The translations under genes were made by a program, and so were the position numbers. A DNA stretch of 64,000 bases from the NCBI GenBank assembly GCA_963843795.1, contig CAWJLW010000006.1, positions 558,001-622,000 on the forward strand. Direction: 5' to 3'. The stretch comes from an uncultured bacterium. Its GTDB lineage: Bacteria; Armatimonadota; Abditibacteriia; Abditibacteriales; Abditibacteriaceae. Of this stretch, positions 292 through 63,176 are shown piece by piece. Below the pieces are notes generated by a model. That model had not been told where the DNA came from. It saw nothing but the letters and a program-made list of their open reading frames with translations, and did not search any database. Positions within the stretch are counted from its first letter, which is position 1. Each line of letters starts with the position of its first letter.

Positions 292-318
292 AGGGTGCTG
301 CAAGTACTTGCCAGAATC

Positions 319-1632
319 TTAGCGCTTACGCTGCACGAACAATAAGAGCAATCCGAAAAGCAGTAGCCAGACGATGGCGCGTCGCCGTGCGCGGCGCGGC
401 GCGTTGTCTTGAATATGTCGATAAAGCGCTTGCACTTTGCGCGTGGTGTTCTGAATGGTGAAATGTTCGCGCACCCGCTTTTGCCCCATTTGCCCCATTT
501 CGAGCGCGCGTTCAGGATGTTGCAAAAGCCACAAAAGCGCTTCGGCCATCGCGTTCGAATCGCCCATCGGCACCAGCAAGCCGGTTTCGTTTTCCTTGAT
601 AATTTCTACCACGCCCCCACCGCGCGTCGCGACCACCGGTTTAGCTGCCGCCATGCCTTCCATCACGACCTGACCAAAGGGTTCGCCAATTGTCGAAGCG
701 TGGGCCAGAATGTCCAAGTCCGCAATTAAACCTGGCACATCGTCTCGAAAGCCCAGCCATTCCAATCTGTCGTCCAGTTTCAATTCGCTGGCCAGTGCCC
801 TCACTTCGCGTTCGTAGTTGTCTTCGCCAAACATCGCCGAACCGATAATTTGAAAGCGTACCTGCGGCCATTGTTCGCGCACCTTTGCGGCAGCGCGAAT
901 GAAAACATCCTGACCTTTCCACGGACTGATGCGTCCGACCAAACCGATCAGCGGCTCGTTTTCCAAGCGTTGGCGCGCGATTCCGCGAGGCTCGACGAAA
1001 CCGTCATGCACTACGCGCGTGCTACTGTCGCTTGGCAATTCTAGTGCATCGAGAGTCGCCTGGGAATTGACGATGAGATACTGAGGCACCAGGCGGCACG
1101 CCAATCGAAACAGGGCCGCGGCTCGCGGCGGCAGATAATCGTCGGCGATGCGGTCTCGAACGTGCCACACGATGGGAACGCTGGCCAATCGTCCGGCCAA
1201 TCCGCCCAAAACATCGGCTTTAAGTGAATTGGTGTGCAAAATTTGAGCGCCGCGCCGATGCAGAAACCAAGACAGTCGGATGACGTAACTTAGCGCGTTC
1301 AAAGCTTGTTTCAACCGTAAGCCCATGGAACCATCGAGCGTATCTTTGCGGGTTTGTGAGATCTGCTCGTCAAGAGGCAAGATGTGAGTTTCGATGTTTG
1401 CCGCGCGCAGTTGGCTTGCTAAATCGCCTTCTTCGCCCAGCACAACAACCGGCGTGTAAAGCGCTGTGTCGATGTGGCTTACCATGTTGAGCAGTGAAAT
1501 TTCGCCTCCACCCAGTTTGGCGGTGTGATCGAAATAAACGATTATCGTGGGTTTTGAGGATTGGGAAGTTCGAGAAAACATGGCGGTGAAAAAGTGCGCT
1601 CTTATCTGATGAAATTTAAGTGAGTTCCTCAT
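319..1632 (-). CDS. Glycosyltransferase family 4 (GT-B fold); real start possibly 1581
   Basis: N-terminal GGGE motif, GRISPWKGQ, EPFGQVVMEGMAAAKPVVAT (E-x7-E). Confidence 0.92.
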   Translation of the reverse strand: MRNSLKFHQIRAHFFTAMFSRTSQSSKPTIIVYFDHTAKLGGGEISLLNMVSHIDTALYTPVVVLGEEGDLASQLRAANIETHILPLDEQISQTRKDTLDGSMGLRLKQALNALSYVIRLSWFLHRRGAQILHTNSLKADVLGGLAGRLASVPIVWHVRDRIADDYLPPRAAALFRLACRLVPQYLIVNSQATLDALELPSDSSTRVVHDGFVEPRGIARQRLENEPLIGLVGRISPWKGQDVFIRAAAKVREQWPQVRFQIIGSAMFGEDNYEREVRALASELKLDDRLEWLGFRDDVPGLIADLDILAHASTIGEPFGQVVMEGMAAAKPVVATRGGGVVEIIKENETGLLVPMGDSNAMAEALLWLLQHPERALEMGQMGQKRVREHFTIQNTTRKVQALYRHIQDNAPRRARRRAIVWLLLFGLLLLFVQRKR

Positions 1633-1806
1633 TAAGTCGTGCGAAATTGTGGTTCTGCTTATAACATTTTCTATGCCTTGCTAAAGTCTAATCACACGCG
1701 ATATTCTAATATCTCTAACGGGACACGGCGATTTGCGCACTGTGTCCGGCACCAAAACAGACCGCAAGTACTTGCAGCGCCCCGACCTCAACTTCGAAAT
1801 CATTTC

Positions 1807-3429: not shown

Positions 3430-3463
3430 AAACGTCGTGCAAGTACTTGCATGACCAGAAATT

Positions 3464-4621: not shown

Positions 4622-4683
4622 AACGTGGTGCAAGTACTTGCGCAGCCGCTGGCCAGTCTTGCGCGCGACTTTGTTGATTTGTA

Positions 4684-6412: not shown

Positions 6413-7381
6413 ATGACAAGACAAAATTCCACTCCTCTGCTTTCGGTCATCATCGTCAGCTATAATACGCGCGACATGACCTTGCGCTGTTTAGAAACTT
6501 TGCAGGCACAATTGCGAGATGAACTTTTGAACAGCGAAGTTTGGCTGGTCGACAACGCTTCACGCGACGGTAGCGCACAAGCGATTCGCGAAGCATTTCC
6601 CACTGTAAATTTAATTGCCAACACGCGCAATTTAGGGTTCGGAGCCGCCAATAATCTGGCCTTGGAAAAAGCCCGCGGCAGGTACTTACTGCTGCTCAAT
6701 TCCGATGCCTTTCCTGTTGAAGGCGCATTGGAAACGTTGTGCAAGTACTTGCGGGAGCATCCCAATGTCGGCGCGGTCGGGCCGCGTTTGTTAAATGCCG
6801 ATGGCAGCTTGCAGGCTTCGTGCTGGAAGTTTCCGTCGCCCGCCCGCAGTTGGTTCGAAAGCGTTGGTTTGGCCGCTGCGCTGCCCAATCACCCGAAATT
6901 TGGTGATTATTATCGCTGGGCGCACGACGAAGAACGCGCGGTTGATTTCGTCATTGGCGCGTGTTTGCTACTGCGCCGCGAAGTTTATGAACAAGTTGGC
7001 GGCTTCGATGAAAATTTCTTTTTGTATGCCGAAGAAACCGATTGGCAAAAACGCATGACGCAAGCCGGTTGGTCGATAGTTTTTCTACCAGATGCGCAAG
7101 TCACGCATTTGGGCGGCGCTTCGGGCTACAACGAATCGGCGCGCGTGAACGCGTATTTCTACGATGGTTGGGATCGCTTTGCGCGCAAACATCATGGCAC
7201 GCGCGGCTGGCTTTCGATGCGCGCCGCGAGCGCCTTGGGCAGCGCGGCGCGTTGGCTGGCTTTTGGCGCGCTGAGTTTGGCGCCATCGCGCTCTAAAAGC
7301 GCACGCGTGCAAATGAAAAAGCAGGGCGCGCTCTTGAAACGGCAACTGTCACCGTGGCGACCGCAGTCGCCGCCATCGTGA
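6413..7381 (+). CDS. Glycosyltransferase family 2 (WbbL-like)
   Basis: SVIIVSYN, VDNASRDGS, NLGFGAANN, LLLNSD, GGFDENFFLYAEETDW. Confidence 0.92.
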   Translation: MTRQNSTPLLSVIIVSYNTRDMTLRCLETLQAQLRDELLNSEVWLVDNASRDGSAQAIREAFPTVNLIANTRNLGFGAANNLALEKARGRYLLLLNSDAFPVEGALETLCKYLREHPNVGAVGPRLLNADGSLQASCWKFPSPARSWFESVGLAAALPNHPKFGDYYRWAHDEERAVDFVIGACLLLRREVYEQVGGFDENFFLYAEETDWQKRMTQAGWSIVFLPDAQVTHLGGASGYNESARVNAYFYDGWDRFARKHHGTRGWLSMRAASALGSAARWLAFGALSLAPSRSKSARVQMKKQGALLKRQLSPWRPQSPPS

Positions 7382-7387: not shown

Positions 7388-7425
7388 GAAAAAGCGCGTT
7401 GCAAGTACTTGCAACGCGCTTTTTC
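7388..7425. terminator. Bidirectional intrinsic terminator: 38-bp perfect palindrome centred on the 12-mer
   Basis: GAAAAAGCGCGTT-GCAAGTACTTGC-AACGCGCTTTTTC between convergent GT2 and clcA. Confidence 0.8.
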
Positions 7426-9397: not shown

Positions 9398-9463
9398 GCG
9401 AAAAGGAAAATAATCTCCTGCAGGTACTTGCAGTGGGCTGGGAGGGAAAGTGACCTTTTAAGA

Positions 9464-9904: not shown

Positions 9905-9990
9905 GCGTATTTTTATCGCAAGTACTTGCAAGGCACAATTCATGCGCGCGCCGTGCGTGTGCGATAGAATTACGCCTTATCTCTGCGCTT

Positions 9991-10611: not shown

Positions 10612-10638
10612 CGCGGCAAGTACTTGCATACTCATTTT

Positions 10639-12291
10639 ATGTCCACATTATTCGCACTTGATGCCCGTTGGCCAATTGAAGATTACGATTTTTTGATAGT
10701 TGGTTCGGGCGTCGCCGGTTTATCGTGCGCCATCGAACTCGCGCCGCACGGTCGTGTGGCGGTTCTCACCAAAGAAGGCATCAGCGAAGGCTCGACGCAG
10801 TGGGCGCAGGGCGGAATTGCCGCCGTTCTCGCGCCCGAACCCTTGGATTCCAGCGCGCTGCATGAACAAGACACCATGAGCGCGGGCGCGGGTTTATGCG
10901 ATTTGAGCGCGGTCGAAGTTTTGGTGCAGGAAGGCCCGCAGCGCATTCGCGAACTGATTGCGCGCGGCGCACATTTCGATACCGAAACCGATGGCCAACT
11001 CAAGCTCACGCGCGAAGCCGCGCATCGCGCGCGCCGCATCGTGCATTCGTTTGGCGATTCCACAGGACGCGAAGTGCAACGCAGCCTCACGCACAGCGCG
11101 CTGACTTCGGCGGGCATTTCCGTCATTGAAAACACGCTCACTGTCGACGTTTTGTTATCCGAAAACGAGGGTGCAAGTACTTGCTGCGGCGTTTTAACTT
11201 TGGATTTAACCACTAATCAATGGAAAATTTATCGCGGCGCGGCCACAATTCTCGCGACCGGAGGTTTGGGCGCATTGTATAAAGTGACGACGAATCCGCC
11301 AGTTCTCACAGGCGACGGCCTTGCGATGGCGTTTCGTGCGGGCGCGGAATTGATGGACATGGAATTTGTGCAGTTCCACCCGACGAGCTTTGCCAAAGGC
11401 CCGGACAATCCGAAATTCTTGATTTCCGAAGCCGTGCGCGGCGAAGGCGCGCTTTTGCTGAATTCCAAGGGCGAGCGTTTCATGCCCAAATATCATGAAA
11501 GCGCCGAACTCGCGCCGCGCGACGTAGTGAGCCGCGCCATTGCGCAGGAAATTCTCAGCAGCGATTGCGATTACGTGACGCTTGATTTGACTGCCAACAG
11601 CGCGGCAGAAATCGCCGCGCGCTTTCCGAAAATCTACGCGACTTGCGTTTCTTATGGCATCGACCCCGCGACCGAACCGATTCCGGTTTCGCCCGCCGAA
11701 CATTATATGATGGGCGGCATTCGCACCGATTTGGACGGCGCAACCAACGTGCGCGGCTTGCTCGCGTGCGGCGAAGCGGCTTGCACCGGCGTTCACGGCG
11801 CGAACCGCTTGGCGTCGAATTCGATGTTGGAAGGTTTGGTTTTCGGAATTCGCACTGTGCGCGCGGCGATGGCATTGAAAAAATCTGCTGAAAGTTCATC
11901 GTCGAAAAATGTGTTGGCGATGAACGGCGCGCGAAAAAGTGCGCCGAGCTTTTCGATAGAAGAACTGGGCGCGGCGCGCAATCGTTTGCAGGAAACGATG
12001 TGGAAGCACGCCGGTTTGGTGCGTTCAGGCGAAGGTTTGACGAGTGCACTGGGGATAATCAACGAGTTGTATGAAAAATTTGGTCAGCCCACCGCGCAGC
12101 GCGAAGCGATTGAACTGGCGAACATGATCGAAACTGCGTGGCTGGTCGTGCGCGCAGCCTTAGAGCGCGAGGAAAGTCGCGGCGCGCATTTTCGCCTCGA
12201 TTTTCCCGCGCCAAACGAAGATTGGCGTTTTCACTTGGTATTGCACGGCGACCGTGAAGATTTGCACATCGAACATATTCCAACGCAATAA
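10639..12291 (+). CDS. nadB: L-aspartate oxidase
   Basis: GSGVAG FAD motif, STQWAQGGIAAV, EFVQFHPT, LISEAVRGEG, ELAPRDVVSRAI, GVHGANRLASNS, ESRGAHFR. Confidence 0.95.
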   Translation: MSTLFALDARWPIEDYDFLIVGSGVAGLSCAIELAPHGRVAVLTKEGISEGSTQWAQGGIAAVLAPEPLDSSALHEQDTMSAGAGLCDLSAVEVLVQEGPQRIRELIARGAHFDTETDGQLKLTREAAHRARRIVHSFGDSTGREVQRSLTHSALTSAGISVIENTLTVDVLLSENEGASTCCGVLTLDLTTNQWKIYRGAATILATGGLGALYKVTTNPPVLTGDGLAMAFRAGAELMDMEFVQFHPTSFAKGPDNPKFLISEAVRGEGALLLNSKGERFMPKYHESAELAPRDVVSRAIAQEILSSDCDYVTLDLTANSAAEIAARFPKIYATCVSYGIDPATEPIPVSPAEHYMMGGIRTDLDGATNVRGLLACGEAACTGVHGANRLASNSMLEGLVFGIRTVRAAMALKKSAESSSSKNVLAMNGARKSAPSFSIEELGAARNRLQETMWKHAGLVRSGEGLTSALGIINELYEKFGQPTAQREAIELANMIETAWLVVRAALEREESRGAHFRLDFPAPNEDWRFHLVLHGDREDLHIEHIPTQ

Positions 12292-12340
12292 AGTGCGCTG
12301 CAAGTACTTGCACTGCGCAAGTTACTAACTTTGCCGAGAA

Positions 12341-14281: not shown

Positions 14282-15637
<1,356 letters not shown>

Positions 15638-15709
15638 ACCATTTATGGCAAAATAAAGCTGCAGGTACTTGCGGACATTTCGCAAGTACTTGCAGCAACT
15701 TTTCAGCAG

Positions 15710-16501: not shown

Positions 16502-16763
16502 GCGCGTCAATTTTCCTGTGCGATGCCGTGCAAGTACTTGCGGAACGCCAAATCTGCTTCTATAAAGTCATTTGGTGGTTTGTTACCGGCTTGTTATGTC
16601 GGATTTTCACTTATAAAACGAAACGCGACAAAAAATTAGGTGCTTCGCGTCTGGTGGGCCACTAGTTGACTTAGAATAGACAAGCGGATGAGGGTTCGAA
16701 GCCTTGTGAGCGCTGTTGCTGATGGCTGATAAAGCAGTTTTGCTGAAATAGTTTGGGGAAAGC

Positions 16764-19700
16764 ATGAGGAATAATTTATCGATTTTGGCGCACGCAGCGC
16801 TGTGCGCACTGCTGTTGTGCGCGTCGTTCCGGGCGGGACAGGTGCGCGCCGCGACCATTTATGCCATCACTAATCAAAACGTGCTGTTGCGCTTCGATAG
16901 CGCAACGCCGCAAACGCTGATTGGCAACACCAATGTTTCCGGTATCAGTAGCGGCGGAAACGCAGTGGGACTCGATTTTCGCCCGAGCAACGGAAAATTG
17001 TATCTGGTAACGCGCGACGGTAGCGGCGTGGGGCGCATCTACACCATTGATACCGCGACCAGCACGGCCACTTTTGTCTCGACAATTTCGGCGAATTTAC
17101 TTTCGGGCAGTTTCGGTTCTTACGGCGTCGACTTCGACCCAATCAATGATTGTTTACGCTTGGTCAACGATTCCAACCAGAATCTGCGCATTGATGTTGA
17201 TAGCGGCACAACCACAGTGGACACCGCGCTGAGTTTTGCGCCTGCTGATACCAATCAAAACACGATACCGCGCATTATTGCAGCGGCTTACGATGATAAC
17301 GGGCGCTTGTTTGATTATGCGTTCGATATCGATACGCTGGTGCGCCAGAATCCGCCGAATGATGGAATTTTGATGTCGATTGGCTCCACCGGAATTTTCG
17401 CGACCGGCCCGGTCAAGCTAGATATTGAGCGCAGCACGGCGCGGGCGCTGGCTTCTACCATCACAGCGGCCAACGGCTATTCTTTATACGATATCGATCT
17501 CGCAACGGGAGCGTTCGCCCGTATCGGCAACATTGGCGATGGCAACATGGTCATTCGCGGTCTGGCGATTACGCGAGCCCGTGTGCAATTTTCTGCCGCC
17601 AATTTCAGCGTCGATGAAAATGCGGGAAGCGCCATCATCAGCGTGATGCGTACCGATGCTAACAGCGCGCTCAGCGTAGATTACGCCACTAACGATGGCA
17701 CGGCCAAAGCCGGTAGCGAATATACCGCGACTTCGGGCACTCTAAATTTCGCCAGCGGGCAAAACAGCGCGACTTTCACGGTGCCGATTTCCGACAACGC
17801 GCTGGATGAGGACAACAAAACTTTTACTCTCACGCTCAGTAACCCGATTGGCGGCCCGAATTTGGGCACGCCCAGCATGGCAACTTTGACCATTATTGAT
17901 GACGATAGCGCCACTCTGACTTTGAGCATTGTTCCCACGACTTTTAGCGAAACTGCGGGCGTCGATGCCGCATCCGGAACCGTTTCGCGTAACACGCCGC
18001 TCGATGGACCGCTGACAGTGACCCTGCTCAGCAACAGCATCCGCGTTTCCGTTCCTGACAGCGTGATAATTCCCACCGGACAAAATTCGGTTGATTTTGC
18101 CTTGGGGGCGGTCGATAACGCCATCGTCGATGGCGCACAAAGTATCGCCATTACGGCCAGCAGTAGCGGTCTGGATTCGGCCACGACCAGCGTAACCATC
18201 ACCGATAACGATTTTAATCCGCCCCGCGCCGATAGCCAGAATGCCAGCACGAACGAAGACACGCCGCTGGGCATCACATTAAGCGGGCGCAGCGAACGTA
18301 TCGCGCCCGCGCAGCTGCATTATCGCGTGCTAACGCCGCCGCAGCAAGGCGTTTTAAATGGCAGAGCGCCCAACTTGGTTTACACGCCCAACCCGAATTT
18401 CAACGGCAACGATGTTTTCACTTTTGTGGTCAGCGATGGCGAAGATTCCGCTCCGGCTACAATTGCTCTGCAAGTACTTGCCATTAACGATGCGCCCCTC
18501 GCCGACAATCAACAGCTGAGCGCTGATAACGCTACGCCGCTACCGATTACTTTGGGTGCGAGCGATATCGATAACGATGCGCTGATTTTCGCCATCGCGA
18601 AAGCGCCCGACAACGGCACGCTTTCAGGCATCGCGCCGAACCTGATTTACACGGCCAACCCCGGTTTTCGTGGCACCGACAGCATCGCTTTCACCGTCAG
18701 CGATGGTAGCCTCACTTCTCAAAGCGCGGTGGTACAAATCGCAGTCGATGGTACTCTCGCCGTAGTCGCTAATGACGACGCGTTTAACTTGATTTTGGGC
18801 GCGTCCGGGCAAGCCCAGCAAAACGATGTCACGCTTCTCAGCAGTGGAGTTTTCCAGATTACGGCACCTGGCATTTTGCGCAATGATAGCTTTGCCACCG
18901 GCAGCGCGCTTGTCGTGAGCGCCCTGAACAATCCGGCCAATGGGCGCTTTCAAATGCGCAGTGATGGCACCTTGTTTTATCTGCCCAGCACCAATCGCAT
19001 CGGAGCCGATGAGTTTCGGTATTCGATTAGCGATGGCAAAACTACAGCAAACGCTGCGGTGCGTTTGAATATCATCGACCAGCGCTCACCTGAACTGCGT
19101 TTCGATAGCCCCTTCGATCGCGCGACGGTCGCCACGATTCGCGAACTTCGGGGACGCGTGCGCGACCGCAACGCGGGCGTGCAAAGCATGACACTGCTGT
19201 GGCGTCGCTTCGATGGCGCATATTGGAATGGTTTGACTTGGACGACAACGCCAGTCGAACTTCCTCTTCGCGTGGAGGGCATCGACTGGAAGTACATCGG
19301 TGCCGTGCCGGTTGCGGGCACCGATCGCACCAGAAATTTGCTCGATGGCCGCTACGATTTGCGCGTGTCCGCGACCGACCAAAGCGGCAATCTCAGTCGT
19401 GTTATCAATCGCATTACCGTCGATAATTTCGCGCCGCAACTGCAAATCGTGCAGCCGGTGGCGTCGAATAACGAAACCGCCGACCTTAACAATCCCACGC
19501 CTCTGTTGGGCTTCGATGAAATTTCCGGTCGCGCCCGCGACGCCAACGGCGTAGCGCGCATCGAGCTGGAACTGTGTCGGGCCAGCGATGGCGCGTATTG
19601 GAACGGGAATGCCTTCACCAGCGCGCCCGCGCGTTTTCGGGCGCAACTCGCGCCCAACGGCGATTGGAAAGCCAACACCAAAACGCCGGTCAAAATTCCC

Positions 19701-19823: not shown

Positions 19824-19860
19824 AAAGTCTGCAAGTACTTGCAGATAATCAGCGTAGCGA

Positions 19861-21396
19861 TTGAGACTGTTAGCAATGCTTCCTGTCACGACAACCATTT
19901 CGCACCGCGCGCGTCGCTTTTGTCTTATCGCTTCGGCTTTGTTGTGGTGGAGCGCGCTGGCGTGGGGGATTTTTCCGTTTGCGTGGTTCGCGCTTGCGCC
20001 ACTTTTGTGGGCCACGCGCGATTTGACGCCGCGCAGTGCGGCGACGTATGGCTGGAAATGCGGCGTTTTGGCCTTCTGGCTCATCAACTGGTGGATTGTG
20101 GCGACGATTACGCGGGGCGCACCGCTCATCGGACAATCGCCGGTTGTCGGCGTTTTACTGGCGATTGTCGCGGTTTCAATCATTGCGATGATTCATGCGC
20201 TGCAAGTACTTGCAGCGCTCTGGACGTGGCGGCGCATCGAGCTGAAATGGCTGTCAGCTCTGGCGTTTGCTGTTGTGTGGACGATTGGCGAATGGGTGCG
20301 CACGCAAACTTCGATGGCGCATTCGTGGGGCGCGTTGGCGTTTTCGCAGTGGCGTGATTTGGCGCTTTTGCAAATCGTTTCGCCGTTTGGTCAACACGCG
20401 TTAAGCGCGCTGTGCGCGTGGTGCAGCGCGATGTGGGCATTGGCTTTCTGGCAAGAAAAAGCTCGTCGCAAGTACTTGCAGCTGGCGTGGCCCATTTGTG
20501 TTTTGCTGCTGTGCCACTTATGGGGCGCGTGGCGTTTATCAACTGCGGCAAGTACGCGTACGCTGCCGGTTTTGGTAGTGCAAACCGATGTTTCGGGATT
20601 GGACAAAGCGACCGGGCAGGAGTCGAGCGCGGCTCAGGCGATGCGCCTGACAACTATGGCGTTGGATGAATTGAAAGCTGCGCCGAATTTGCCCATGCCG
20701 CAATTAATGATGTGGCCCGAAGGCACAATTAATGTGCGCAAAAGTGGCGCGGGCCTGAGCGGAACCGATGCGCTGCGTCTCGGAAGTTTGGTGCGCCAAA
20801 GCGGTGTGCCCTTATTAACGGGCGCGGGCGTGCGTCAAAACGTCGATGGTCGAGATTTATTTCGCAACGATGCGCTTTTAATGGATAGCGACGAACGTTT
20901 CGCGCGGCGCGGCAAAACTCGACCTGTGCCGTTTGGCGAGCGCGCGCTGTTCGGCGATTATCTACCGTTTTTAAATGCGCTGGCGCCTGACCCTCAGGTC
21001 GAAATCGCGCCCTATGAAGGGCCGCTGCGTTTGCGGACGCCCGTTGGCGCGTTGCAAATCGGCAGCGCTATCTGTTTTGAAAGCGCGTTTCCTGAGCCCT
21101 CGCTGAGCAACACGCGAAGCCATTCGCAACGCGGGGATTTGCTGGCGATTTTAACCAATGATAAATGGTTTCAAAGTACCGAAGCACCGCGCGAGCACGC
21201 GGCGATGGCGATTGTGCGCGCGGTCGAAAACGGTGTGGCAGTCGTGCAAGCGGCCAACGGCGGCCAGTCTTTGGCGGTGGATCGTTACGGGCGACCCGCG
21301 CCAGTACTGTGGAAAAGTGGCGTGGCTTTCGATGGCAACGATTGGATGAAATTTAGTCAAAAAGGTGTGGCTCTGTTCGCTGTTCCGTTGCCGTGA
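19861..21396 (+). CDS. lnt: Apolipoprotein N-acyltransferase
   Basis: N-terminal TM bundle, EWVR, nitrilase triad WPE / GKTRPVPFGE / ICFES, TNDKWF, RAVENG, ANGGQS. Confidence 0.9.
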   Translation: MRLLAMLPVTTTISHRARRFCLIASALLWWSALAWGIFPFAWFALAPLLWATRDLTPRSAATYGWKCGVLAFWLINWWIVATITRGAPLIGQSPVVGVLLAIVAVSIIAMIHALQVLAALWTWRRIELKWLSALAFAVVWTIGEWVRTQTSMAHSWGALAFSQWRDLALLQIVSPFGQHALSALCAWCSAMWALAFWQEKARRKYLQLAWPICVLLLCHLWGAWRLSTAASTRTLPVLVVQTDVSGLDKATGQESSAAQAMRLTTMALDELKAAPNLPMPQLMMWPEGTINVRKSGAGLSGTDALRLGSLVRQSGVPLLTGAGVRQNVDGRDLFRNDALLMDSDERFARRGKTRPVPFGERALFGDYLPFLNALAPDPQVEIAPYEGPLRLRTPVGALQIGSAICFESAFPEPSLSNTRSHSQRGDLLAILTNDKWFQSTEAPREHAAMAIVRAVENGVAVVQAANGGQSLAVDRYGRPAPVLWKSGVAFDGNDWMKFSQKGVALFAVPLP

Positions 21397-21697
21397 ACGC
21401 GTTATCTTTGAGCTTGATGAGGGCGCGGGAAAAATTGCGCTGCACTTTGTGTGGGCGCGTGATTATACTACGGCAACGTTTCGCGGCGACAGAGTGTGCA
21501 ATCGGGTATAATTCGGCTATGAAATCAGTCCTGAAAACGGCTGCGAAAAGGGCACCGCGTGCGAGCTGATACGTTGTTTGATTCTACAATATTGCCGGTG
21601 CCATTCTACGCAGAAACACAAGGAATTTCACACGGCACGGCAAGTCGCAGCGTGTAAAGCGCGGTGCAAGTACTTGCGGGCGCGAGGAGCATAACAA

Positions 21698-23386: not shown

Positions 23387-23467
23387 AAAAACAAACGCCG
23401 CCATCAAGTGATGGCGGCGTTTGTTTTTATAGTAAAAGCGCGCTGCAAGTACTTGCAGCGCGCTTTT
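23387..23467. terminator. Two tandem bidirectional hairpins between convergent genes
   Basis: AAAAACAAACGCCGCCATCA-AG-TGATGGCGGCGTTTGTTTTT (23387-23428), then a 34-bp perfect palindrome on the 12-mer (23434-23467). Confidence 0.85.
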
Positions 23468-23483: not shown

Positions 23484-24365
23484 TTATTTTACGATTGTTG
23501 GCTCGGCATTTGTCACTGCGACATTTAAGTTGCCGCGTCGATAGCCTTCCAAATTCAGCAGCACTTGCGCATAGCCAATTTCTTTCAAATGTTCAGTCGC
23601 TTCGGCATAAAATTCCAGAAAACGCGCCATTTCGTGCGGCGCAATTTCTAATCGCGCTTGCGGACGTTCGTGTTCGACGTAATGACGCACGCGCACTTCG
23701 CGCAAACCGCGCTCGCGCAACCATGCTTCACCACGCCCGATCATTTGTAGCGCTTCGCGCGTGACCGGTGTGCCATAAGGGATGCGAGAACTGAGGCACG
23801 GCATCGCTGGTTTGTCCCATGTGGGCAAACCGGCGCGGCGCGACAAAATGCGAATTTCGGCCTTGTTTAAATTTGCTTCATAAAGTGGAGAACGAATCGC
23901 ACGTTCGCGTCCGGCTTGCGCGCCAGGCCGCCATTCTTTCAAATCGTCGGCGTTGGTGCCGTCGCAAACCGCGTCGAATGAAGTGTCGCGCGCAAGTACT
24001 TGCAGTGTGTCGAACAATTCGCTTTTGCAGAAATAACAGCGATTGGTCGGGTTGGAAGCGTAATTTTCGTCTTCCATTTCGTGCGTTTCGACTTCGCGTA
24101 GCGGCACGTTCATTTGCTGAGCGAGTTGACGCGCTTCTTCCAGTTCCTCGGGCATCAAAGACGGAGAAATGCCGATAGTCGCTTGCGCGTTTTCGCCCAG
24201 CTCCTCGCGCGCGACGTGAAGCAAATACGCCGAATCAACGCCACCGGAATACGCGATAATCGCACGCGAAAAGCCGCGCAGAATTTCGCGCAAACGCGCT
24301 TCTTTTTCCTGTAAAACCGCTTCGTCGGGTGCGGTGTTGAAGTTCAATTGGATTAAATCAGACAT
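23484..24365 (-). CDS. larE: LarE-like ATP-dependent sulfur transferase (PP-loop, TIGR00268 type)
   Basis: AYSGGVDS PP-loop, NRCYFCK, DGTNADD..RPG, WDKPAMPCLSSRIPYG, VRVRH. Confidence 0.88.
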   Translation of the reverse strand: MSDLIQLNFNTAPDEAVLQEKEARLREILRGFSRAIIAYSGGVDSAYLLHVAREELGENAQATIGISPSLMPEELEEARQLAQQMNVPLREVETHEMEDENYASNPTNRCYFCKSELFDTLQVLARDTSFDAVCDGTNADDLKEWRPGAQAGRERAIRSPLYEANLNKAEIRILSRRAGLPTWDKPAMPCLSSRIPYGTPVTREALQMIGRGEAWLRERGLREVRVRHYVEHERPQARLEIAPHEMARFLEFYAEATEHLKEIGYAQVLLNLEGYRRGNLNVAVTNAEPTIVK

Positions 24366-25305: not shown

Positions 25306-25343
25306 CAAAAGCGTCGCTGCAAGTACTTGCAGCGACGCTTTTG
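25306..25343. terminator. Bidirectional terminator: 38-bp perfect palindrome on the 12-mer
   Basis: CAAAAGCGTCGCT-GCAAGTACTTGC-AGCGACGCTTTTG between convergent genes. Confidence 0.8.
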
Positions 25344-26336: not shown

Positions 26337-26368
26337 AAAGCATTCTGCAAGTACTTGCAGAATGCTTT
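26337..26368 (-). terminator. 32-bp perfect palindrome on the 12-mer after spoVS
   Basis: AAAGCATTCT-GCAAGTACTTGC-AGAATGCTTT with a T6 tail on the minus strand. Confidence 0.7.
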
Positions 26369-29035: not shown

Positions 29036-29076
29036 AGCGCCCTGCAAGTACTCGAGGCAAGTACTTGCAGGGCGCT
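29036..29076 (-). terminator. Terminator hairpin built from two copies/half-copies of the 12-mer
   Basis: AGCGCCCTGCAAGTACT-CGAGGCA-AGTACTTGCAGGGCGCT with a T-run on the minus strand. Confidence 0.75.
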
Positions 29077-36754: not shown

Positions 36755-36886
36755 ATTTGCGCTCTCTTCTTCTCTGCAAGTACTTGCAGCTTGCTTTTAT
36801 TTGATTTCGCAAGCCGAATTTTGGTTCCACTCAGCAAAATCATCAATGTCATCAATCTGCTTGCGTTATCTGCTTATCGTCAATTT

Positions 36887-37660: not shown

Positions 37661-37891
37661 AAAAATACTCGAAAAACACGTCCGCCAATCTCAAGGTCAA
37701 TTAATACAGTACGCGAAATCGAAGTTCGTGGTTTTGAACCGCTTCGCGCGTCCGCATTGATTATTCCCCGTTTGCAAATCTTTTTAAAGGCCCCGCAAGT
37801 ACTTGCCACGCAAGCGCAGGACATTTTGACCAGTAATTTCGCCGTGACTCATGCTTTCCACAGCGCTTGTAAGCGCTGTGAAAAACATGTT

Positions 37892-40396: not shown

Positions 40397-41086
40397 AGCA
40401 AATTCTCAAATTCACGTCGTCCGGCGCATCGTAAAAATTGGCCGATGGAAGGCGACGGTTTGTCTCAAATTTTTAGATCAGGTCGAATCGTTTCACCACA
40501 AATTCTTTGCGAAATGGTGTGCGAGTTGAATGCAACAAGTGCAATGCAACAGTGCGAAATACAACCAGTGCGACATGGGATGCAACTCCGAATGGACGGT
40601 GCGAAGATGATGGACAATGATTGTGACGTTGTCGAAAAATGTGCTTCTATTATTATCGTCGCGCCGCCTTGTGTCAACGCATCGCGCCGCTAAAATCTTC
40701 CGTTAGGCACGCATAACCGATTTTTAAACCGCTTTGTCGGTTCGCGCGTAACAACCAAATGCTTTGCTTTCACAAATTTCTTCCGCAAGTACTTGCGCGA
40801 AATAACCAGCACTTGCGTTCTTATTTTAGCAGCCGCGACGATTGTTAGGCGAATTTTACTTCAACTCGCCGTTTGATGCGCGGGTCAATGCACGGATCAA
40901 CGATCAGAGTGTGTTGTGTAGGTTGATTCGTTATGCCTGCGCTCTTTAGCGCGATGCACCAACCTTGCTAAACTGCGCGCCCGATGCATTCACCGCTGCA
41001 AGCTATTTGCAAGTACTTGCAGCGGTGTTTTTGTGCATCAAATTTATTCTAATCCACTGAGTACGAGAAAAAACGAGATAATCAAC

Positions 41087-42661: not shown

Positions 42662-42720
42662 CCCTGCAAGTACTTGCAGGCGGTTCATAGAGAAAAATCG
42701 GGCGGGGATTTTGGGAAAAT

Positions 42721-43668: not shown

Positions 43669-43707
43669 GCTACAAACCTGTGACAAGTACTTGCAGGAAG
43701 AAAATAA

Positions 43708-45327: not shown

Positions 45328-45383
45328 AGAAGACCTCCTGCAAGAGGAGAAATACGAAGAATGAAAAGTTCGGCGTGCACTTG

Positions 45384-45884: not shown

Positions 45885-45942
45885 AATTCGTCGTCTTTGT
45901 GTGCGGCAAGTGCTTGCCGCAACGCCTTGTGAAGCAACGCGC

Positions 45943-46443: not shown

Positions 46444-46774
46444 ACGATTTCCTTGTCAGCGAACTTCGGCTTAACTTCCAGTTTTCCCCAAGATAATAGA
46501 ATTGCAACATCCTTGCCTTATTCTAATCTTGCTATTTGCATTGAAACGCGCAGCTTCCTCGCTGGTTCATTTCGGAGACGTTGAAATTGTACTGGTTCCG
46601 TGTCACGACCATTGTTTTGGGTTGCTTATTTACGTTTGTCGCGACTGCTAAACTGCTATTCCATATTTACGCACCACATTTTTCCGAAATTTTCCGATTT
46701 TTAAGCTTGTTACGATCCTGCAAGTACCTGCAGGGCCAAATGCGGGTTACGATTATTTCAAATACCTGAATTCT

Positions 46775-48163: not shown

Positions 48164-48199
48164 AAAAAGCTCGCTGCAAGTACTTGCAGCGAGCTTTTT
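48164..48199. terminator. Bidirectional terminator: 36-bp perfect palindrome on the 12-mer
   Basis: AAAAAGCTCGCT-GCAAGTACTTGC-AGCGAGCTTTTT between convergent genes. Confidence 0.82.
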
Positions 48200-48578: not shown

Positions 48579-48633
48579 CGTTTGTTTTTCCTGTCAAAAA
48601 TTACAACTCCCTACTGCAAGTACTTGCAGCGCG

Positions 48634-51003: not shown

Positions 51004-51124
51004 TTTATCCTCCTGCGAATAACCCTCCGACACAGGCAACTTGTGATATGTTCCCCCTGTCACAATTGAGGAGCGCGCTGCAAGTACTTGCAGCGCGCTT
51101 TGGATAATCGGCACTCGAGCGGAT

Positions 51125-55870: not shown

Positions 55871-55908
55871 GAAAAACGGGCCTGCAAGTACTTGCAGGCC
55901 CGTTTTTC
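55871..55908 (-). terminator. 38-bp perfect palindrome on the 12-mer after the anti-sigma gene
   Basis: GAAAAACGGGCCT-GCAAGTACTTGC-AGGCCCGTTTTTC. Confidence 0.8.
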
Positions 55909-57751: not shown

Positions 57752-57753
57752 CC

Positions 57754-58428: not shown

Positions 58429-58645
58429 TGCTATCCAATTTCAAAAACCCAATTCGTGCATCTGTGGCTGCCAGCAAGTATTTGCCCGTGAGACTTGTCG
58501 GCGTCGGTGTAGCAACTCACTTACGAAGTAACGGCAATTGATGCCACTAAAAACAGTACTGCCCCGCAAGTGTAAGCAAGTACTTGCAGGGCAGTTTAGA
58601 AGAAATGAGGACCGCGTTGGTAACTGATTAGTAATTTCTTGGCGA

Positions 58646-60430
58646 TTAGCGATAAGTGACGCCGACGCGCCATGACGAGCGATTTTCGCCCGCGCGTGCG
58701 CCCTGCACCGAATATTCAACTGCCATACCCAAACCCTCACCGCCCACATCGTAGCGAAAACCGTATTCGCGCGCGCCTTCGTTTTTGAGCGAACTACCAT
58801 CGCCCGTCAGCGATTGCGCGTCGTTGTCTTTGAAACGCAAAGCTATGCGACCAATCGGCGATTTGATGCGCGCTTCGGCTTCGCGCTGCGCGGTATCATC
58901 AAAGCGCGAAGCGAGAAAATTATTATCGCCGTTTAAACGCCACGAACCTTTCAATGTCAGCCAATCAAAAACATTGCGTTCGGCGCTTAAATTCAACGCA
59001 TCAGCGCGGCGAGCTTCGGCATTGCTAATTTTTTGCTCCGTCCATTGGCGCGACCATTTCAGTCCCCAGGTGCCGGCTTTAGTGCGATGTTGAACTTCCA
59101 CAGCCGCGCGATCTTCATCGCGCAACCATTGAGGCACGCGGTTGTTGGGATCGAAAATGTCTGCTCCGTCGCTCGTTGGATCAACAGGAGCGCCGGACGC
59201 GGCTTCCTGATCGACGCGCGTCATGGCGCCATTGGCTGCAAGCGACAAATTGTCAGAAAGTTTCCATTTCAGACCGATTTCGCTCGCGTGGCGGTTGCTC
59301 AATAAATCGGCAAGCTGCTCATTTTCACCGTTAAGCGACTGGCTTTGCAAGTTCTCGCTGCTGCTGCGGTGCGAAGTCGAAAGCGAAATATCTTTACCCA
59401 GCTTCCACTGGCCTTCGATACCGATCTGATTGGTCGCGCGCCGTCTGGTTTGTTCTTCGGCCAGCTTTTGTTCCATCGCGGTGTCGTCGCCCGCATTCAG
59501 AGCTTTTTCGCTGCTTTCCAGTGCGTTTGTGTGGGAGGTCAGCACAGAAACGTTCGGTGTCAGTTTCCATTTCCATTCGATGCCGACTTCGTTGTTGTTA
59601 TTGCGCTTGAGCTGTTCGGAAAGCGAGCGGGTTTCTCCATCGGATGTCTGCACATCTTCGTTTTCCAAACGGCTTTGATGGGCTGTTGTCAGCGCCAAGT
59701 TGGAATTGAGTTGCCAGCGAAATTTCGCGTTGCTTTCCATTGTGCCCTGATTTTTTTGGTTGGTCTCCCACTGCGTGACAGCGTTCGAAGGCGCGCCCGG
59801 CGTTTTTTGGTCGGCTTCGCTGAGGCCAATGTCCGCGCTGCCGGTGAGGTCACCGATTTTTACGTCTTGAATCAACTTCAGTACGCCTGCGCTGCCATCG
59901 TCTTGCGCCGAAGTTTTGGCATCGGTTGATAAACCGGCGTGGTTTTCGCGGTAGTTGGCAACCACGCGCGCCGTGCCAAAAGGATGCTCGACCGGGGCTT
60001 CCACGCCCAAACTCCATTTCTGCGCCGCTCGGCTTTTGCCTGCCATCGCGAAATCTTCGGTTTTGCTGCGGTCGCTGCTCCATTTCCACGAGGCCGGGAA
60101 TGCCGATTGCGGTGCCGAGCTTTCGTTTTTGAAAGACGCCTGCAAATTGCCAATTTCCAAGCGCAAGTCTTGCGGCGCGGCTTCGGTGGGCCGCGTGTCC
60201 ATCCAACGCAGCGATTCGCGTCCGGTCAGCGAACGCGATTGATTAGGCCGCTTGAAATTCCACACTCGCGCCCCATCCAGGCGCGCCTGTCGTTCGCGCT
60301 GCAAACGCATTTCCAGTTGGCGATTGGAGGTTTCAGGCGCTGATTTTTCAGCGGCTTTGGACACGCTGCAAGTACTTGCAGCGGTAGTTGCTGTGATGAA
60401 AGTGGCGAAGAAAAGCAATTTTTTAGCCAT
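58646..60430 (-). CDS. Secreted hypothetical protein with repeated amphipathic beta-hairpins (possible outer-membrane beta-barrel)
   Basis: Signal peptide from MAKKLLFF; four repeats (KFRWQLNSNLAL, GIEWKWKLTPNVSV, GIEGQWKLGKDISL, GLKWKLSDNLSL); ends WRVGVTYR. Confidence 0.6.
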   Translation of the reverse strand: MAKKLLFFATFITATTAASTCSVSKAAEKSAPETSNRQLEMRLQRERQARLDGARVWNFKRPNQSRSLTGRESLRWMDTRPTEAAPQDLRLEIGNLQASFKNESSAPQSAFPASWKWSSDRSKTEDFAMAGKSRAAQKWSLGVEAPVEHPFGTARVVANYRENHAGLSTDAKTSAQDDGSAGVLKLIQDVKIGDLTGSADIGLSEADQKTPGAPSNAVTQWETNQKNQGTMESNAKFRWQLNSNLALTTAHQSRLENEDVQTSDGETRSLSEQLKRNNNNEVGIEWKWKLTPNVSVLTSHTNALESSEKALNAGDDTAMEQKLAEEQTRRRATNQIGIEGQWKLGKDISLSTSHRSSSENLQSQSLNGENEQLADLLSNRHASEIGLKWKLSDNLSLAANGAMTRVDQEAASGAPVDPTSDGADIFDPNNRVPQWLRDEDRAAVEVQHRTKAGTWGLKWSRQWTEQKISNAEARRADALNLSAERNVFDWLTLKGSWRLNGDNNFLASRFDDTAQREAEARIKSPIGRIALRFKDNDAQSLTGDGSSLKNEGAREYGFRYDVGGEGLGMAVEYSVQGARAGENRSSWRVGVTYR

Positions 60431-60649
60431 AATGTCGAAAAGCGTGTGAAATCGGCACTCAAACTGGTGCAAAATCGCGACGTGGACGTGACAAAGAGCG
60501 CACAGTTCAAAATTCGTTCGGCAAATACTTGCAAAAACGCCTTGAAGCAAGTACTTGCTTCAAGATTTTTCGGGTCAATGCACCCTTACGACAAAGCGGC
60601 GCGCATCATGATGCGCGCCGCTTGCTTATCACAAAAACAATTCGTGAAA

Positions 60650-61414: not shown

Positions 61415-61440
61415 AGATAAAGTGTTTTCTGTCTGTTAAG

Positions 61441-62991
61441 TCAGCTTGCGCCCTTTGTCGTAACCATCGCTTTCAGCGTTTTGAACAACAATTTCACATC
61501 GAGCCACAGGCTCCAGTTGTCGATATATTCCAAGTCCATGCGCATCCATTCGTCTACGTCGGTCACATCGTTGCGGCCCGAAGCCTGCCATATACAGGTG
61601 AGTCCGCCTTTGACCGAGAGTTTACGTTTGTGCCACGCTTGCAAATCGGCGACTTCTTTAGGCAGTGGCGGACGAGGGCCAACCAAGCTCATATCGCCGC
61701 GCAGCACGTTCCAGAATTGTGGCAGTTCGTCGATAGACGTTTTGCGAATAAAGCGTCCGACGCGCGTGATGCGCGGATCGTCGCCGTCGCGCGCTTTGAA
61801 AAATGGTTCTTCCATGATGTTGATGGCGCGATATTTTTCCGGCTCTTCGCGCTTCATGGTTTCCAAAATTTCCTGCGCCCGAACGTGCATGGAGCGGAAT
61901 TTATAGAACGGGAACAAACGACCATTTAAGCCAACGCGTTGCTGAGTGAAAAAGACTGGCCCGCCATCGCCCATTTTGATCAAGAGGGCGACAATCGGAA
62001 AGACTGGAATGATAAAAGTCAAGACCAAAATCGCAATCAATGCGATAGTACGATCCATTACGTCTTTGACCGCTAAAGCAACGGTGTTTTGCGGCGTGTT
62101 GTGCAAAACCATCGTCGGCATATTGCCCATCATATGGGCTTCGACTTTGGCGTTCATCGGCGGCGCCATGTCATCGACCAAGCTGACCGTGTTGCCGCGT
62201 TCCAAGCACATTTCCAAAATATCGCCCCACGCGATAGTTTTTTCGCGCAGTTCGCTAATCGAGCGCACCAGAATAACTTCATCGACCACGTCGCGGTCTA
62301 AAATCGCACTCAGTTCGCGCAAAGTGCCGATGTGAGGAATTTTTTCATCATCGGTTGGCACCGTGTCATCGTAAACGTAGCCCAGTAATCGCGAGCGCGA
62401 GTAAGCGGGCGTTTCAAGCACTTTGGCGAAATTGGCTGCAGCGCTGTGCGGGCCAATCACGATCATATTGCGCATCGCGCGCGCCCCACGACGTTGGGCC
62501 AATGGTAACAAAAGAGTGCGTTGCAGCCATAAGAAAGTGACGCCAAGGATAATGAAACCCATCAGCAATAAGCGGCTGATATCGAGTTTGAACAAAACGA
62601 TGAACACCGTAATTGCGACAGTTCCCAGCAAACCCGCATAAGCACACATCGCAAATTCTTGTCGCGCAGTGCGTTGAATTTGCGGATCGTAGCCGCGCTG
62701 AGTGTTGAGGAAAAACAGCCATGCTGGAATCGCCAGATACATCAGCCAGAGGTGTTTTTGGATGTTGACCAATGGATTGCTCGAAAGCAGAATCTGATAA
62801 GTGTTCGGTGAAATTTCGCCGACACGACGCACCATCGGCTTTAAATTCGAGCCGAACAATGCTGCTGTGTGCACCAAAAATTCGCCCAGCCCACCACGCA
62901 AAAACCACACGCAGAAAAACGCCACCATTAAAGTGGCCACATCCAGAGCCAATGACAGCATGACATGAGCCGTCCGTTGCGCTTTCAACAT
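61441..62991 (-). CDS. Priming polyprenyl-phosphate sugar-phosphotransferase (WcaJ/WbaP-like)
   Basis: N-terminal TMs, CoA-binding-like domain, YKFRSM, DPRITRVGRFIRKTSIDELPQFWNVLRGDMSLVGPRP, DLEYIDNWS. Confidence 0.95.
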   Translation of the reverse strand: MLKAQRTAHVMLSLALDVATLMVAFFCVWFLRGGLGEFLVHTAALFGSNLKPMVRRVGEISPNTYQILLSSNPLVNIQKHLWLMYLAIPAWLFFLNTQRGYDPQIQRTARQEFAMCAYAGLLGTVAITVFIVLFKLDISRLLLMGFIILGVTFLWLQRTLLLPLAQRRGARAMRNMIVIGPHSAAANFAKVLETPAYSRSRLLGYVYDDTVPTDDEKIPHIGTLRELSAILDRDVVDEVILVRSISELREKTIAWGDILEMCLERGNTVSLVDDMAPPMNAKVEAHMMGNMPTMVLHNTPQNTVALAVKDVMDRTIALIAILVLTFIIPVFPIVALLIKMGDGGPVFFTQQRVGLNGRLFPFYKFRSMHVRAQEILETMKREEPEKYRAINIMEEPFFKARDGDDPRITRVGRFIRKTSIDELPQFWNVLRGDMSLVGPRPPLPKEVADLQAWHKRKLSVKGGLTCIWQASGRNDVTDVDEWMRMDLEYIDNWSLWLDVKLLFKTLKAMVTTKGAS

Positions 62992-63176
62992 CCTGTTAAA
63001 TTCACCTCGTAATTAGATTTCCAATCAGTGCGCCGTCTTACATTGTAAAACATAATCGCACCCGACGCGCATTTGGCGCAATTTGCACAGCACAATTTCG
63101 CATCACTTGCATAAGTCGTAGCAAACAATTCGCCTTTTGTGCCGTGCAAGTACTTGCAACACGATTTTCATACCAA

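Follow-up and report, generated by a model that had tools for sequence, protein, structure and literature searches.

A highly iterated palindrome in the Abditibacteriaceae as a candidate DNA-uptake or recombination self-signal

Introduction

Why does a 12-letter palindrome, GCAAGTACTTGC, recur throughout a 64-kb stretch of DNA (the window) from a member of the Abditibacteriaceae, whose genome (G000) comprises 4.3 Mb on 11 contigs? The initial annotation offered three options: (a) an uptake signal, (b) a methylation-driven highly iterated palindrome (HIP) and (c) a site for an abundant chromosome-organising protein. Of these, the first appears to fit best. Sequence-specific uptake of self-DNA has been described for Neisseriaceae and Pasteurellaceae, and methylated signals for Campylobacter and cyanobacteria; the purpose of the cyanobacterial HIP1 is open. 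We found no prior description of GCAAGTACTTGC in the literature searched; genome-wide k-mer surveys published only as supplements may list such words.

Results

The window holds exactly 37 exact copies of GCAAGTACTTGC, spanning positions 300 to 63157, in agreement with an earlier count of at least 37, and seven one-mismatch copies; no exact copy occurred in any of 100 dinucleotide shuffles. The gene caller places 31/37 copies outside genes and 6/37 inside. The copies are thus mostly intergenic, as had been claimed, but the exact split, previously put at 30, varies with start choice because a few of the 31 sit in longest-ORF 5' extensions. Gene junctions holding a copy number 26/46, barely the majority implied by the earlier phrase "most gene junctions". 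The reported extension of the flanks to CTGCAAGTACTTGCAG was confirmed. An Rfam scan of the window gave 0 matches.

Features of the window (coordinates, strand where assigned, description; "exact" and "one-mismatch" refer to copies of GCAAGTACTTGC):
300..311, exact, convergent-gene spacer
1764..1775, exact, divergent spacer by gene call, within 5' extension of ORF 1639-3429
3439..3450, exact, tandem spacer
4630..4641, exact, tandem spacer
6741..6752, + strand, exact, in glycosyltransferase gene, K-Y-L frame
7388..7425, perfect hairpin with GCAAGTACTTGC (7401-7412) at apex, 13-bp extension, A/T tails, bidirectional terminator-like, convergent genes
9420..9431, one-mismatch
9918..9929, exact, divergent spacer by gene call
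10616..10627, exact, tandem spacer preceding nadB
11173..11184, + strand, exact, in nadB, A-S-T-C frame
12300..12311, exact, tandem spacer
14321..14332, exact, tandem spacer
15661..15693, one-mismatch (15661) and exact (15682), 21 bp or two helical turns apart
16530..16541, exact, tandem spacer
18470..18481, + strand, exact, in gene 16764-19823, Q-V-L-A frame
19831..19842, exact, tandem spacer
20202..20213, + strand, exact, in lnt, Q-V-L-A frame
20468..20479, + strand, exact, in lnt, K-Y-L frame
21666..21677, exact, tandem spacer
23434..23467, terminator-like hairpin with GCAAGTACTTGC (23445-23456) at apex, 11-bp extension, convergent genes
23992..24003, - strand, exact, in larE, Q-V-L-A frame
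25306..25343, terminator-like hairpin with GCAAGTACTTGC (25319-25330) at apex, 13-bp extension, convergent genes
26337..26368, hairpin with GCAAGTACTTGC (26347-26358) at apex, 10-bp extension
28426..28437, exact, spacer preceding rny by gene call
29040..29076, exact (29057-29068) with partial second copy ahead, within hairpin
31138..33336, - strand, PilQ-like secretin gene, candidate uptake machinery, putatively tied to the word
36776..36787, exact, spacer inside pilM-pilQ operon
37795..37806, exact, spacer following pilM
37892..40396, - strand, pilM, candidate uptake machinery, putatively tied to the word
40785..40796, exact, pilM/hisG divergent spacer
41009..41020, exact, pilM/hisG divergent spacer
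42666..42677, exact, tandem spacer
43683..43694, one-mismatch
45906..45917, one-mismatch
46720..46731, one-mismatch
48164..48199, terminator-like hairpin with GCAAGTACTTGC (48176-48187) at apex, following hemL, 12-bp extension, convergent genes
48616..48627, exact, tandem spacer
51072..51099, hairpin with GCAAGTACTTGC (51080-51091) at apex, 8-bp extension
55871..55908, terminator-like hairpin with GCAAGTACTTGC (55884-55895) at apex, 13-bp extension
58474..58485, one-mismatch
58576..58587, exact, spacer by gene call
60368..60379, exact, spacer by gene call, within 5' part of ORF 58646-60550
60521..60558, one-mismatch (60521) and exact (60547)
63146..63157, exact, spacer following glnA

The excess is genome-wide rather than confined to the window, as expected of the uptake- or HIP-type signature first suspected. 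G000 contains 2567 exact copies against 0.2 expected, on all 11 contigs and at 597 per Mb, alongside 506 one-mismatch copies; half-sites are only slightly enriched. Copies are 71% intergenic and 29% genic, with a mean spacing of 1575 nt (about one per 1.6 kb), and the spacing is even (CV 0.89 versus 1.19 +/- 0.02 in the null). Spacers tend to have about one copy, and the number per spacer stays at 0.54-0.68 for spacers of 30-800 nt. Inside genes, density falls from 0.349 to 0.207 and 0.106 per kb with zero, one and two word-bearing flanking spacers (p=8e-19), a gap-filling pattern, although in genes with one flanking copy the half nearer to it is not depleted of sites (111 vs 129, p=0.27). The 750 in-gene copies are evenly distributed along gene length, and distances to the next gene start are broad. 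The two largest gaps, of 26 kb each, lie over IS-rich islands with transposase-like and type I R-M-like genes (names from sequence reading only). Mapping against the replication axis, suggested earlier together with that of islands, gave no ori/ter pattern: density was 605 copies per Mb around the skew maximum and 557 around the minimum, with 629 overall. The local clusters that we examined pointed to no DNA-binding gene.

Outward 20-nt half-flanks of the genome copies are distinct in 5073/5126 cases, so the copies share no longer repeat; the flanks are otherwise unrelated, as stated before, and the word does not lie inside a longer mobile repeat. Two features had been overlooked. The first is extension into perfect hairpins of at least 8 bp, found around 499/2567 copies versus ~5 expected. 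The core AAGTACTT is present in 479/682 terminator-like hairpins of G000 (70%), mainly between convergent and tandem genes, while ~80% of the copies have no hairpin. The second is a set of helically phased A/T tracts in the flanks; phased T/A tracts also accompany in-gene copies. The 180 close pairs of copies are separated by multiples of ~10.5 bp (Rayleigh Z 18.4, 0/1000 jittered nulls). This phasing was not significant for in-gene pairs (57 pairs), nor in the relatives G009 and G001, where pairs are few (6 and 12).

Comparison with orthologues revealed how sites arise in genes. The alignment is ungapped at 40/48 in-gene sites, and in another comparison at 37/42 pairs; a gap at or adjoining the site was seen in 8/48, a raw count. 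GCAAGTACTTGC sites therefore arise mostly without insertion. Among the public runs listed, none of RNA carries the organism, and one soil run gave contigs too short to bear on the conservation of sites. Their accumulation has marked the proteome, in which the peptide QVLA occurs 562 times versus 21-127 for its permutations. Symmetrised over positions 1-6, one-mismatch copies number 110, 40, 62, 154, 60 and 80.

Among 27 genomes of the family, a word of this kind was detected in 11 and none was found in 16. In relatives GCAAGTACTTGC is replaced: the family words comprise four AGTACT palindromes and three asymmetric words (GTACGGTCGA, CAGCCACG and CCACAAAAAATGA). Five are of GTAC type, whereas CAGCCACG and CCACAAAAAATGA lack GTAC, so that no single core is common to all. 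The asymmetric words show no strand bias and form inverted pairs in terminators of G006, G016 and G020; about half of the sampled copies in G006 and G020 are so paired. Sister genomes differ, G012 and G020 being word-bearing and their respective sisters G017 and G042 word-free. A gapped-word scan of the 16 word-free genomes, in samples of 17-98 kb each, yielded only local repeats and A-runs and no dispersed word; with samples of this size, weak or degenerate words could escape detection. A bipartite type I site was considered for the G020 word and rejected, since 33/36 spacers are the same A-run, which makes the word contiguous. Shared sites, taken as proof that the dialects are homologous, looked strong in a naive count, but the signal was mostly lost with an amino-acid-aware control: it persisted in the congener G001 (4/9 vs 3/118, p=0.0004) and not in G009 (2/12 vs 18/173, p=0.62) or G012 (0/2 vs 11/49).

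G000 encodes ComEC, ComEA, DprA, a ComM-family protein, PilB, PilT, PilC, PilD, PilM, a secretin and pilins; the assembly splits pilC and two genes of the pilin operon. The competence and pilus genes do not track the words, since ComEC (27/27), ComEA (25/27) and PilD (26/27) are found across the family, word-free genomes included. Among the four relatives read, of 26 genomes bearing PilD, the minor-pilin operon gave no marker: it was present in 4/4, word-free G017 included, where it is the same. ComEA was set aside as the receptor, its HhH domains being ordinary and alike by eye in word-bearing and word-free genomes. The ComP_DUS profile PF16732 matched 0/27 family genomes and equally 0/14 controls.

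Discussion

We consider GCAAGTACTTGC, with a probability of roughly 55%, to be a self-signal for DNA uptake or recombination that biased transformation has spread and that acts like a DNA uptake sequence. Somewhere in the course of transformation (at the pilus tip, in the periplasm or at the recombination step), a sequence-specific protein would bind bendable, double-stranded DNA across ~55 bp at the word, and word-bearing fragments would be taken up or recombined more often; word-creating point mutations would therefore spread and losses would be repaired. The advantage would saturate at about one copy per incoming 1-2 kb fragment, which would account for even spacing and gap-filling, and recently acquired DNA would not yet have accumulated the word. 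Most intrinsic terminators would have been rebuilt round GCAAGTACTTGC because the palindrome is a ready-made hairpin top, and specificity would switch or vanish between lineages. Counting against this reading are the palindromic form of the word, the unrelated words of the family, the equal frequency of competence genes in word-free genomes, the split pilC and pilin-operon genes and the lack of near-half avoidance in genes with one flanking copy.

Even spacing and helical phasing are also expected from a nucleoid protein, and GCAAGTACTTGC may be the site of an abundant, chromosome-organising one: a dimeric DNA-bending or wrapping protein, needed about once per 1-2 kb, its sites maintained by selection without uptake. 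The perfect palindrome with little-enriched half-sites, the phased A/T tracts and the close pairs all suit such a protein, and a structural role has been suggested for HIP1 in PMC5861425. We nonetheless regard it as rather unlikely. The absence of a detected word from 16/27 family genomes, sisters G017 and G042 among them, would be surprising if the need were architectural; copy density follows no ori/ter pattern; the pair phasing, not significant in genes, may derive from shared flanking tracts; and no candidate protein was found. The sites of SlmA, Noc, MatP and ParB are 12-16 bp palindromes present in tens of copies, whereas GCAAGTACTTGC is present in thousands. The SlmA site presumably contains AGTACT, as the initial annotation had it, but the likeness fails because GCAAGTACTTGC is not excluded from the terminus.

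An explanation that we judge unlikely follows HIP1: an orphan methylase would mark GTAC (or AGTACT), and the palindromes would be made and maintained either by methyl-reading uptake or by a ratchet of methyl-directed repair. GTAC is the core of the five words noted above. The methylase search urged earlier found no Dam or C5 methylase. G000 has one orphan N4/N6 methylase (PF01555) with a DPPY motif, at 2517365-2518135 on contig C6, and MutS is encoded as well. Orthologues of the methylase occur in 22/27 family genomes, and many of the relatives that possess it are nearly devoid of GTAC. HIP1 is reported to raise transformation, the effect depending on methylation (10.1101/2024.09.10.611283), and methylated RAATTY to do likewise in C. 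jejuni (PMC10046745). On the other side, the methylase is intact in 10/16 word-free genomes and went undetected in word-bearing G016, which weakens option (b), as do the negative Dam and C5 result and the two words without GTAC. GTAC avoidance is relaxed mainly in the clade of G010, G021 and G023, where CTAG avoidance is relaxed too, and outside GCAAGTACTTGC GTAC is unremarkable in G000 (O/E 0.61). Counted per position, mismatches strike the GTAC core (140) about as often as they do the flanking bases of the word (366), while one-base deviations of HIP1 are placed at its end bases by PMC4390886. No conserved partner adjoins the methylase across 22 loci, and its PDB and PADLOC matches gave no resolvable target.

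Two further explanations are very improbable. The first takes the word for a very small mobile element or a hairpin of REP/NTS type, spread by an Ssn-type nuclease or a RAYT transposase. It would suit the doubled copies 10-13 nt apart on contig C6 (22 cases, mostly within hairpins), the single Y1 transposase-family gene of G000 and the gapped minority of in-gene sites, but most in-gene sites are ungapped and the flanks unique. The Y1 gene is interrupted by an in-frame stop and has a REP-like repeat of its own that differs from the word (15 copies), no Y1 match was obtained for word-bearing G006, and in the 92%-complete G000 no Ssn-type small nuclease was found, PF01541 (GIY-YIG) matching only frames of 672 and 450 aa. 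A transcription signal, either terminator loop or global-regulator operator, would explain the word's share of terminator-like hairpins but not the hairpin-free majority, the evenly spread genic copies, the broad distances to the following start or the gap-filling.

Known DUS and USS are asymmetric, with one core across a family. GCAAGTACTTGC resembles the Neisseriaceae DUS in length, density, genic share, ~1.5-kb spacing and scarcity of mismatched copies, as well as in its absence from acquired DNA, its terminator use and its dialects, which differ by species; in G006 and G020 the asymmetric words likewise stand in inverted pairs. For Neisseria, 1892 DUS copies are reported, 34.5% genic, alongside 815 DUS-1, at a spacing of ~1500 nt (PMC2397512), and ~55% of terminators contain a DUS (PMC1852404). 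GCAAGTACTTGC differs in being palindromic and sitting at the hairpin apex, and the Abditibacteriaceae, of another phylum, have no one core and mostly no detectable word; ComP was not found, although its profile was blank in controls too. With the Pasteurellaceae USS it shares a short core, A/T tracts at distances of one and two turns of the helix, proteome distortion and presence in terminators; phased T/A tracts are described for the Haemophilus USS in PMC12616744. Its flanks are, however, symmetric round the palindrome, its sequence is unrelated, and 29% of copies are genic versus 65% given for H. influenzae (PMC2817400).

Like HIP1 and alternative HIPs of cyanobacteria, GCAAGTACTTGC is a palindrome iterated hundreds of times per Mb, of indel-free origin and with a four-base restriction-type core; an orphan methylase is conserved in the family, and relatives have patchily lost or replaced the word. 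It differs in its 12 bp, its strongly intergenic and terminator-linked placement and mismatches that are not end-biased; moreover, Abditibacteriaceae relatives use asymmetric words, and their orphan methylase is at most a candidate match. The methylated RAATTY site of Campylobacter jejuni (CtsM), a palindromic transformation self-signal with an orphan adenine methylase, might serve as a model, but it is a degenerate six-base site, whereas the 12 bases of GCAAGTACTTGC are invariant and at most putatively methylated. REP/RAYT and NTS/Ssn sequences are also plentiful, palindromic and intergenic; REPs are conserved hairpin units of 20-40 nt flanking the RAYT gene, and NTS flank a small, single-domain GIY-YIG gene. 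GCAAGTACTTGC lacks a body conserved past 12-16 bp, has many indel-free in-frame genic copies and is linked to no transposase or small nuclease.

If the uptake reading of GCAAGTACTTGC extends to its relatives, the Abditibacteriaceae might possess a third, independently evolved uptake-signal system, outside the Proteobacteria. A swappable specificity module, gained or lost between sister species, would have rewritten entire genomes in unrelated words of at least three types, some palindromic and HIP-like, others asymmetric and DUS-like. We put this forward tentatively. It would unite HIP1-type palindromes with DUS-type signals under one mechanism and indicate a class of receptor, not yet described, that recognises DNA by its sequence. 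A family with palindromic, asymmetric and no words, in which sister pairs differ, is a natural experiment: comparison of sister genomes should reveal the word-setting gene and makes molecular drive versus chromosome structure testable. The words can serve as species-level barcodes for binning and, if they drive uptake, would be a key to transforming a barely cultured group. As a separate observation, viral contigs contain similar 16-mers.

Abundance and placement of the word

The initial annotation counted at least 37 copies of the palindrome GCAAGTACTTGC (centre AGTACT; here "the word") in the window; the exact count is 37, and none appeared in any of 100 shuffles. The genome signature that it proposed is borne out by the source genome, G000 (4.30 Mb, 92% complete), which holds 2567 copies (597 per Mb), against a prediction of 0.19 by an order-4 Markov model fitted to the masked genome. 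Copies with one mismatch number 506 versus 6.5 expected, and those with two mismatches 371 versus 117. The excess is real and extreme.

By our own 3362 gene calls, made without curated annotation, 1811 copies fall between genes, 750 inside genes and 6 at a gene edge. The genic copies are spread evenly along genes and use all three frames (Q-V-L-A 491, K-Y-L 144, A-S-T-C 115); the peptide QVLA occurs 562 times, versus 21–127 for each of the remaining 23 permutations of these residues. Perfect hairpins extend at least 8 bp around 499 of the 2567 sites, versus about 5 expected from mixed half-flanks. Extensions of at least 7 bp accompany 182 of 287 copies in convergent spacers and 304 of 1252 in tandem spacers, and are rare in divergent ones (22 of 265). 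The core AAGTACTT lies inside 479 of the 682 perfect hairpins with a T-run found 3' of genes in G000. Outside hairpins the flanks are unrelated, as had been claimed, with 5073 of 5126 outward 20-mers distinct. At window positions 29040-29076 and at 22 sites on C6, the contig carrying the window, the word is partly or wholly doubled at 10–13 nt spacing, mostly in terminator hairpins, which suggests that the hairpin top undergoes slippage or cut-and-fill.

Spacing and helical phasing

On C6 the mean spacing is 1575 nt with a CV of 0.89, versus 1.19 ± 0.02 for equal numbers of copies set randomly within genes and within spacers. Copies per spacer remain at 0.54–0.68 for spacer lengths from 30 to 800 nt, with a variance below the mean. 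Among 2101 genes of 0.5–2.5 kb outside islands, in-gene density is 0.349, 0.207 and 0.106 per kb with 0, 1 and 2 word-bearing flanking spacers, respectively (p=8e-19); genes with one flanking copy show no near/far bias of in-gene sites (111 versus 129). Two 26-kb gaps contain genes that, from reading the sequences, we call transposase-like and type I R-M-like.

Around 434 in-gene sites, compared with 924 amino-acid-matched control sites, TT is enriched 14–17 nt from the word centre (41% versus 18% upstream, 21% versus 16% downstream) and again at 24–28 nt (36% versus 27% and 32% versus 19%), with troughs in between and the differences mostly gone further out. For words 15–150 nt from a neighboring copy, the 180 pair distances favor multiples of 10.5 nt, a periodicity reached by 0 of 1000 jittered nulls; this pair phasing is significant in spacers and not in genes, and may be a by-product of common flanking tracts.

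Origin of sites and dialects

In orthologues from G001, G009 and G012, relatives with about 60% protein identity to G000, the alignment is ungapped within and next to the word for 40 of 48 in-gene sites, as a raw count, and for 37 of 42 pairs in an earlier set. At these positions the relatives usually have unrelated codons. Site sharing with the congener G001 exceeds amino-acid constraint (p=0.0004); none beyond it was detectable with G009 or G012.

Counts in 40 relatives, which the initial annotation had called for, found the exact word nearly absent (0–3 copies each); the family itself, though, is sharply divided. AGTACT occurs 2813–4733 times in six of its 27 genomes and 1–285 times in the remaining 21, and in 227 genomes from the rest of the phylum it stays at or below about 240 per Mb. 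In sampled DNA the dialect is CAAAGTACTTTG in G001, TCGAGTACTCGA in G009, G015 and G019, and (C)GAGTACTC(G) in G012. Three further words are asymmetric and show no strand bias: GTACGGTCGA (2981 copies in G006 versus 0–7 in four other genomes), CAGCCACG (2676–3503 in G007, G016 and G018 versus 131–529 in the other 24) and CCACAAAAAATGA (2035 in G020 versus 2–17 in four near relatives). Inverted pairs within 45 nt account for 42 of 77 sampled copies in G006, 20 of 37 in G020, 10 of 33 in G016, 2 of 39 in G007 and 0 of 26 in G018; many of those in G006 are flanked by A- and T-runs, resembling terminator stems. Samples of 17–98 kb from each of the other 16 family genomes, here called word-free, yielded no word. 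On a hemL+ComEC tree, whose deep nodes are weakly supported, the words are distributed patchily, with differences between sister genomes.

At least 138 metagenome loci carry GCAAGTACTTGC, with at least two copies in 50 among the loci listed; 46 of these 50 (some overlapping; GC 59–71%) encode proteins 48–91% identical to those of G000. Since the same 12-mer stands in loci of other species, an assembly artefact was rejected. Seven IMG/VR contigs of low GC (37–46%; L430, L449, L450, L463, L509, L519, L533) hold several copies, most of them within longer GTGCAAGTACTTGCAC-like 16-mers, and lack similarity to the G000 proteome; these are possibly phage operators of independent origin. Copies of the G020 word in the word-free G042 (C13, C64, C212) and G024 (C226, C257, C393) are few and cluster on a small number of contigs; they may be remnants, reflect mis-binning or stem from DNA acquired from a relative with the word. 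GTAC and CTAG are near absent in family groups g5 and most of g2 (O/E mostly 0–0.2 in samples), where AGTACT can be as scarce as 1 copy in 6 Mb, while word-bearing genomes stand at the other extreme; this avoidance is relaxed in G010, G021 and G023, genomes without the orphan methylase described below.

A candidate uptake signal

We favor, with a probability of about 0.55, the reading that the word is a self-signal spread by biased uptake and recombination. The data together point to recognition of the word as double-stranded, helically phased DNA, to an advantage that saturates at about one copy per 1–2 kb, to accumulation by substitution in resident DNA, and to replacement by another word or loss; biased uptake with recombination would account for all four. 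Every step from the word pattern to a protein is one that we infer.

The excerpted text of PMC2397512 gives, for the Neisseria uptake signal DUS, 1892 copies, 34.5% genic, 815 one-mismatch copies and about 1500 nt spacing, a close numerical match to the G000 word. The word behaves like DUS and its Haemophilus counterpart USS, but it is a palindrome, and, unlike theirs, the family's words have no one common core. Strict DUS/USS membership fails on these two points, and no ComP is shown: a search of the 27 family genomes gave no match, with controls that were equally blank. The comparison literature, in excerpt, comprises PMC13756078, PMC12616744, PMC11893778, PMC1939737, PMC4390886, PMC2397512, PMC3630211, PMC1852404, PMC5861425, PMC10046745, PMC12378983, PMC2817400 and 10.1101/2024.09.10.611283. 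Open-access searches found no paper with GCAAGTACTTGC, none on Abditibacteri with "highly iterated palindrome" and, among the papers listed, nothing on Abditibacteriaceae words; for five related words, the matches listed concern unrelated subjects only. As far as these searches reach, the word is unpublished.

G000 encodes ComEC, ComEA, DprA, a ComM-family protein, PilB, PilT, PilC (split), PilD, PilM, a secretin and several pilins. These genes permit the uptake reading and do not favor it, because they are near-universal in the family (ComEC 27/27, ComEA 25/27, PilD 26/27). The operon pilB-pilT-pilC-pilD (G000:C6:385799-402501, L597; also L600-L603) continues into four unusually long pilin-like genes (280–700 aa) and a 1300-aa pilin-associated gene; it is kept in four relatives at 30–50% identity, and three of its genes are split in G000, possibly by assembly frameshifts. 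A regular-expression scan of G000 gave 56 prepilin-like genes; 47 resemble DUF1559 and two have a FecR domain. Three TadE/TadG-like genes at window 43765-46443 form a second pilus-type cluster. In the word-free G014 (C8: ComEC, PilD) and G010 (ComEC, ComEA), competence genes appear broken or shortened, perhaps through decay or assembly error.

Alternative readings

A nucleoid-protein site would account for symmetry and phasing, but it fits badly with word loss in sister species, and we regard it as unlikely. No ori/ter pattern appeared in the density map that the initial annotation had proposed: the word is excluded at neither GC-skew extreme of G000.

A methylation process like that of the cyanobacterial palindrome HIP1 could apply to GTAC words, and could even form part of the uptake step, but it cannot cover words without GTAC; as the source of the words it is doubtful. 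G000 has a single N4/N6 methylase, an orphan whose DPPY motif presumably indicates N6-adenine methylation. Its homologues are in Abditibacterium utsteinense (77% identity) and in an Abditibacteriaceae and an Armatimonadota bacterium (both 69%), and on these matches we treat the source organism as belonging to Abditibacteriaceae. Searches of G000 for Dam-type and C5 methylases found none, and the orphan does not track words: orthologues occur in 22 of 27 family genomes (2 broken), are intact in 10 word-free genomes and were not found in word-bearing G016. HIP membership is not passed, as no matching methylase is shown and the one-mismatch pattern differs from that of HIP. The orphan of G020 (L203) clusters with the G000 and G001 enzymes, not with its own genus, and has a neighbor gene in common with G017, which suggests acquisition by transfer; G020 is also alone in having a word of its own that is unrelated to the others.

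A role in transcription and spread as a mobile element are both very unlikely; the single Y1 transposase-family gene of G000 is interrupted and has its own, different repeat, and no small GIY-YIG nuclease was found in that genome. This RAYT-like gene (G000:C6:751652-753123, outside the window) has an in-frame stop near its start and is flanked by a REP-like hairpin repeat beginning GTAGGGCG, present in 15 copies genome-wide, often paired about 86 nt apart.
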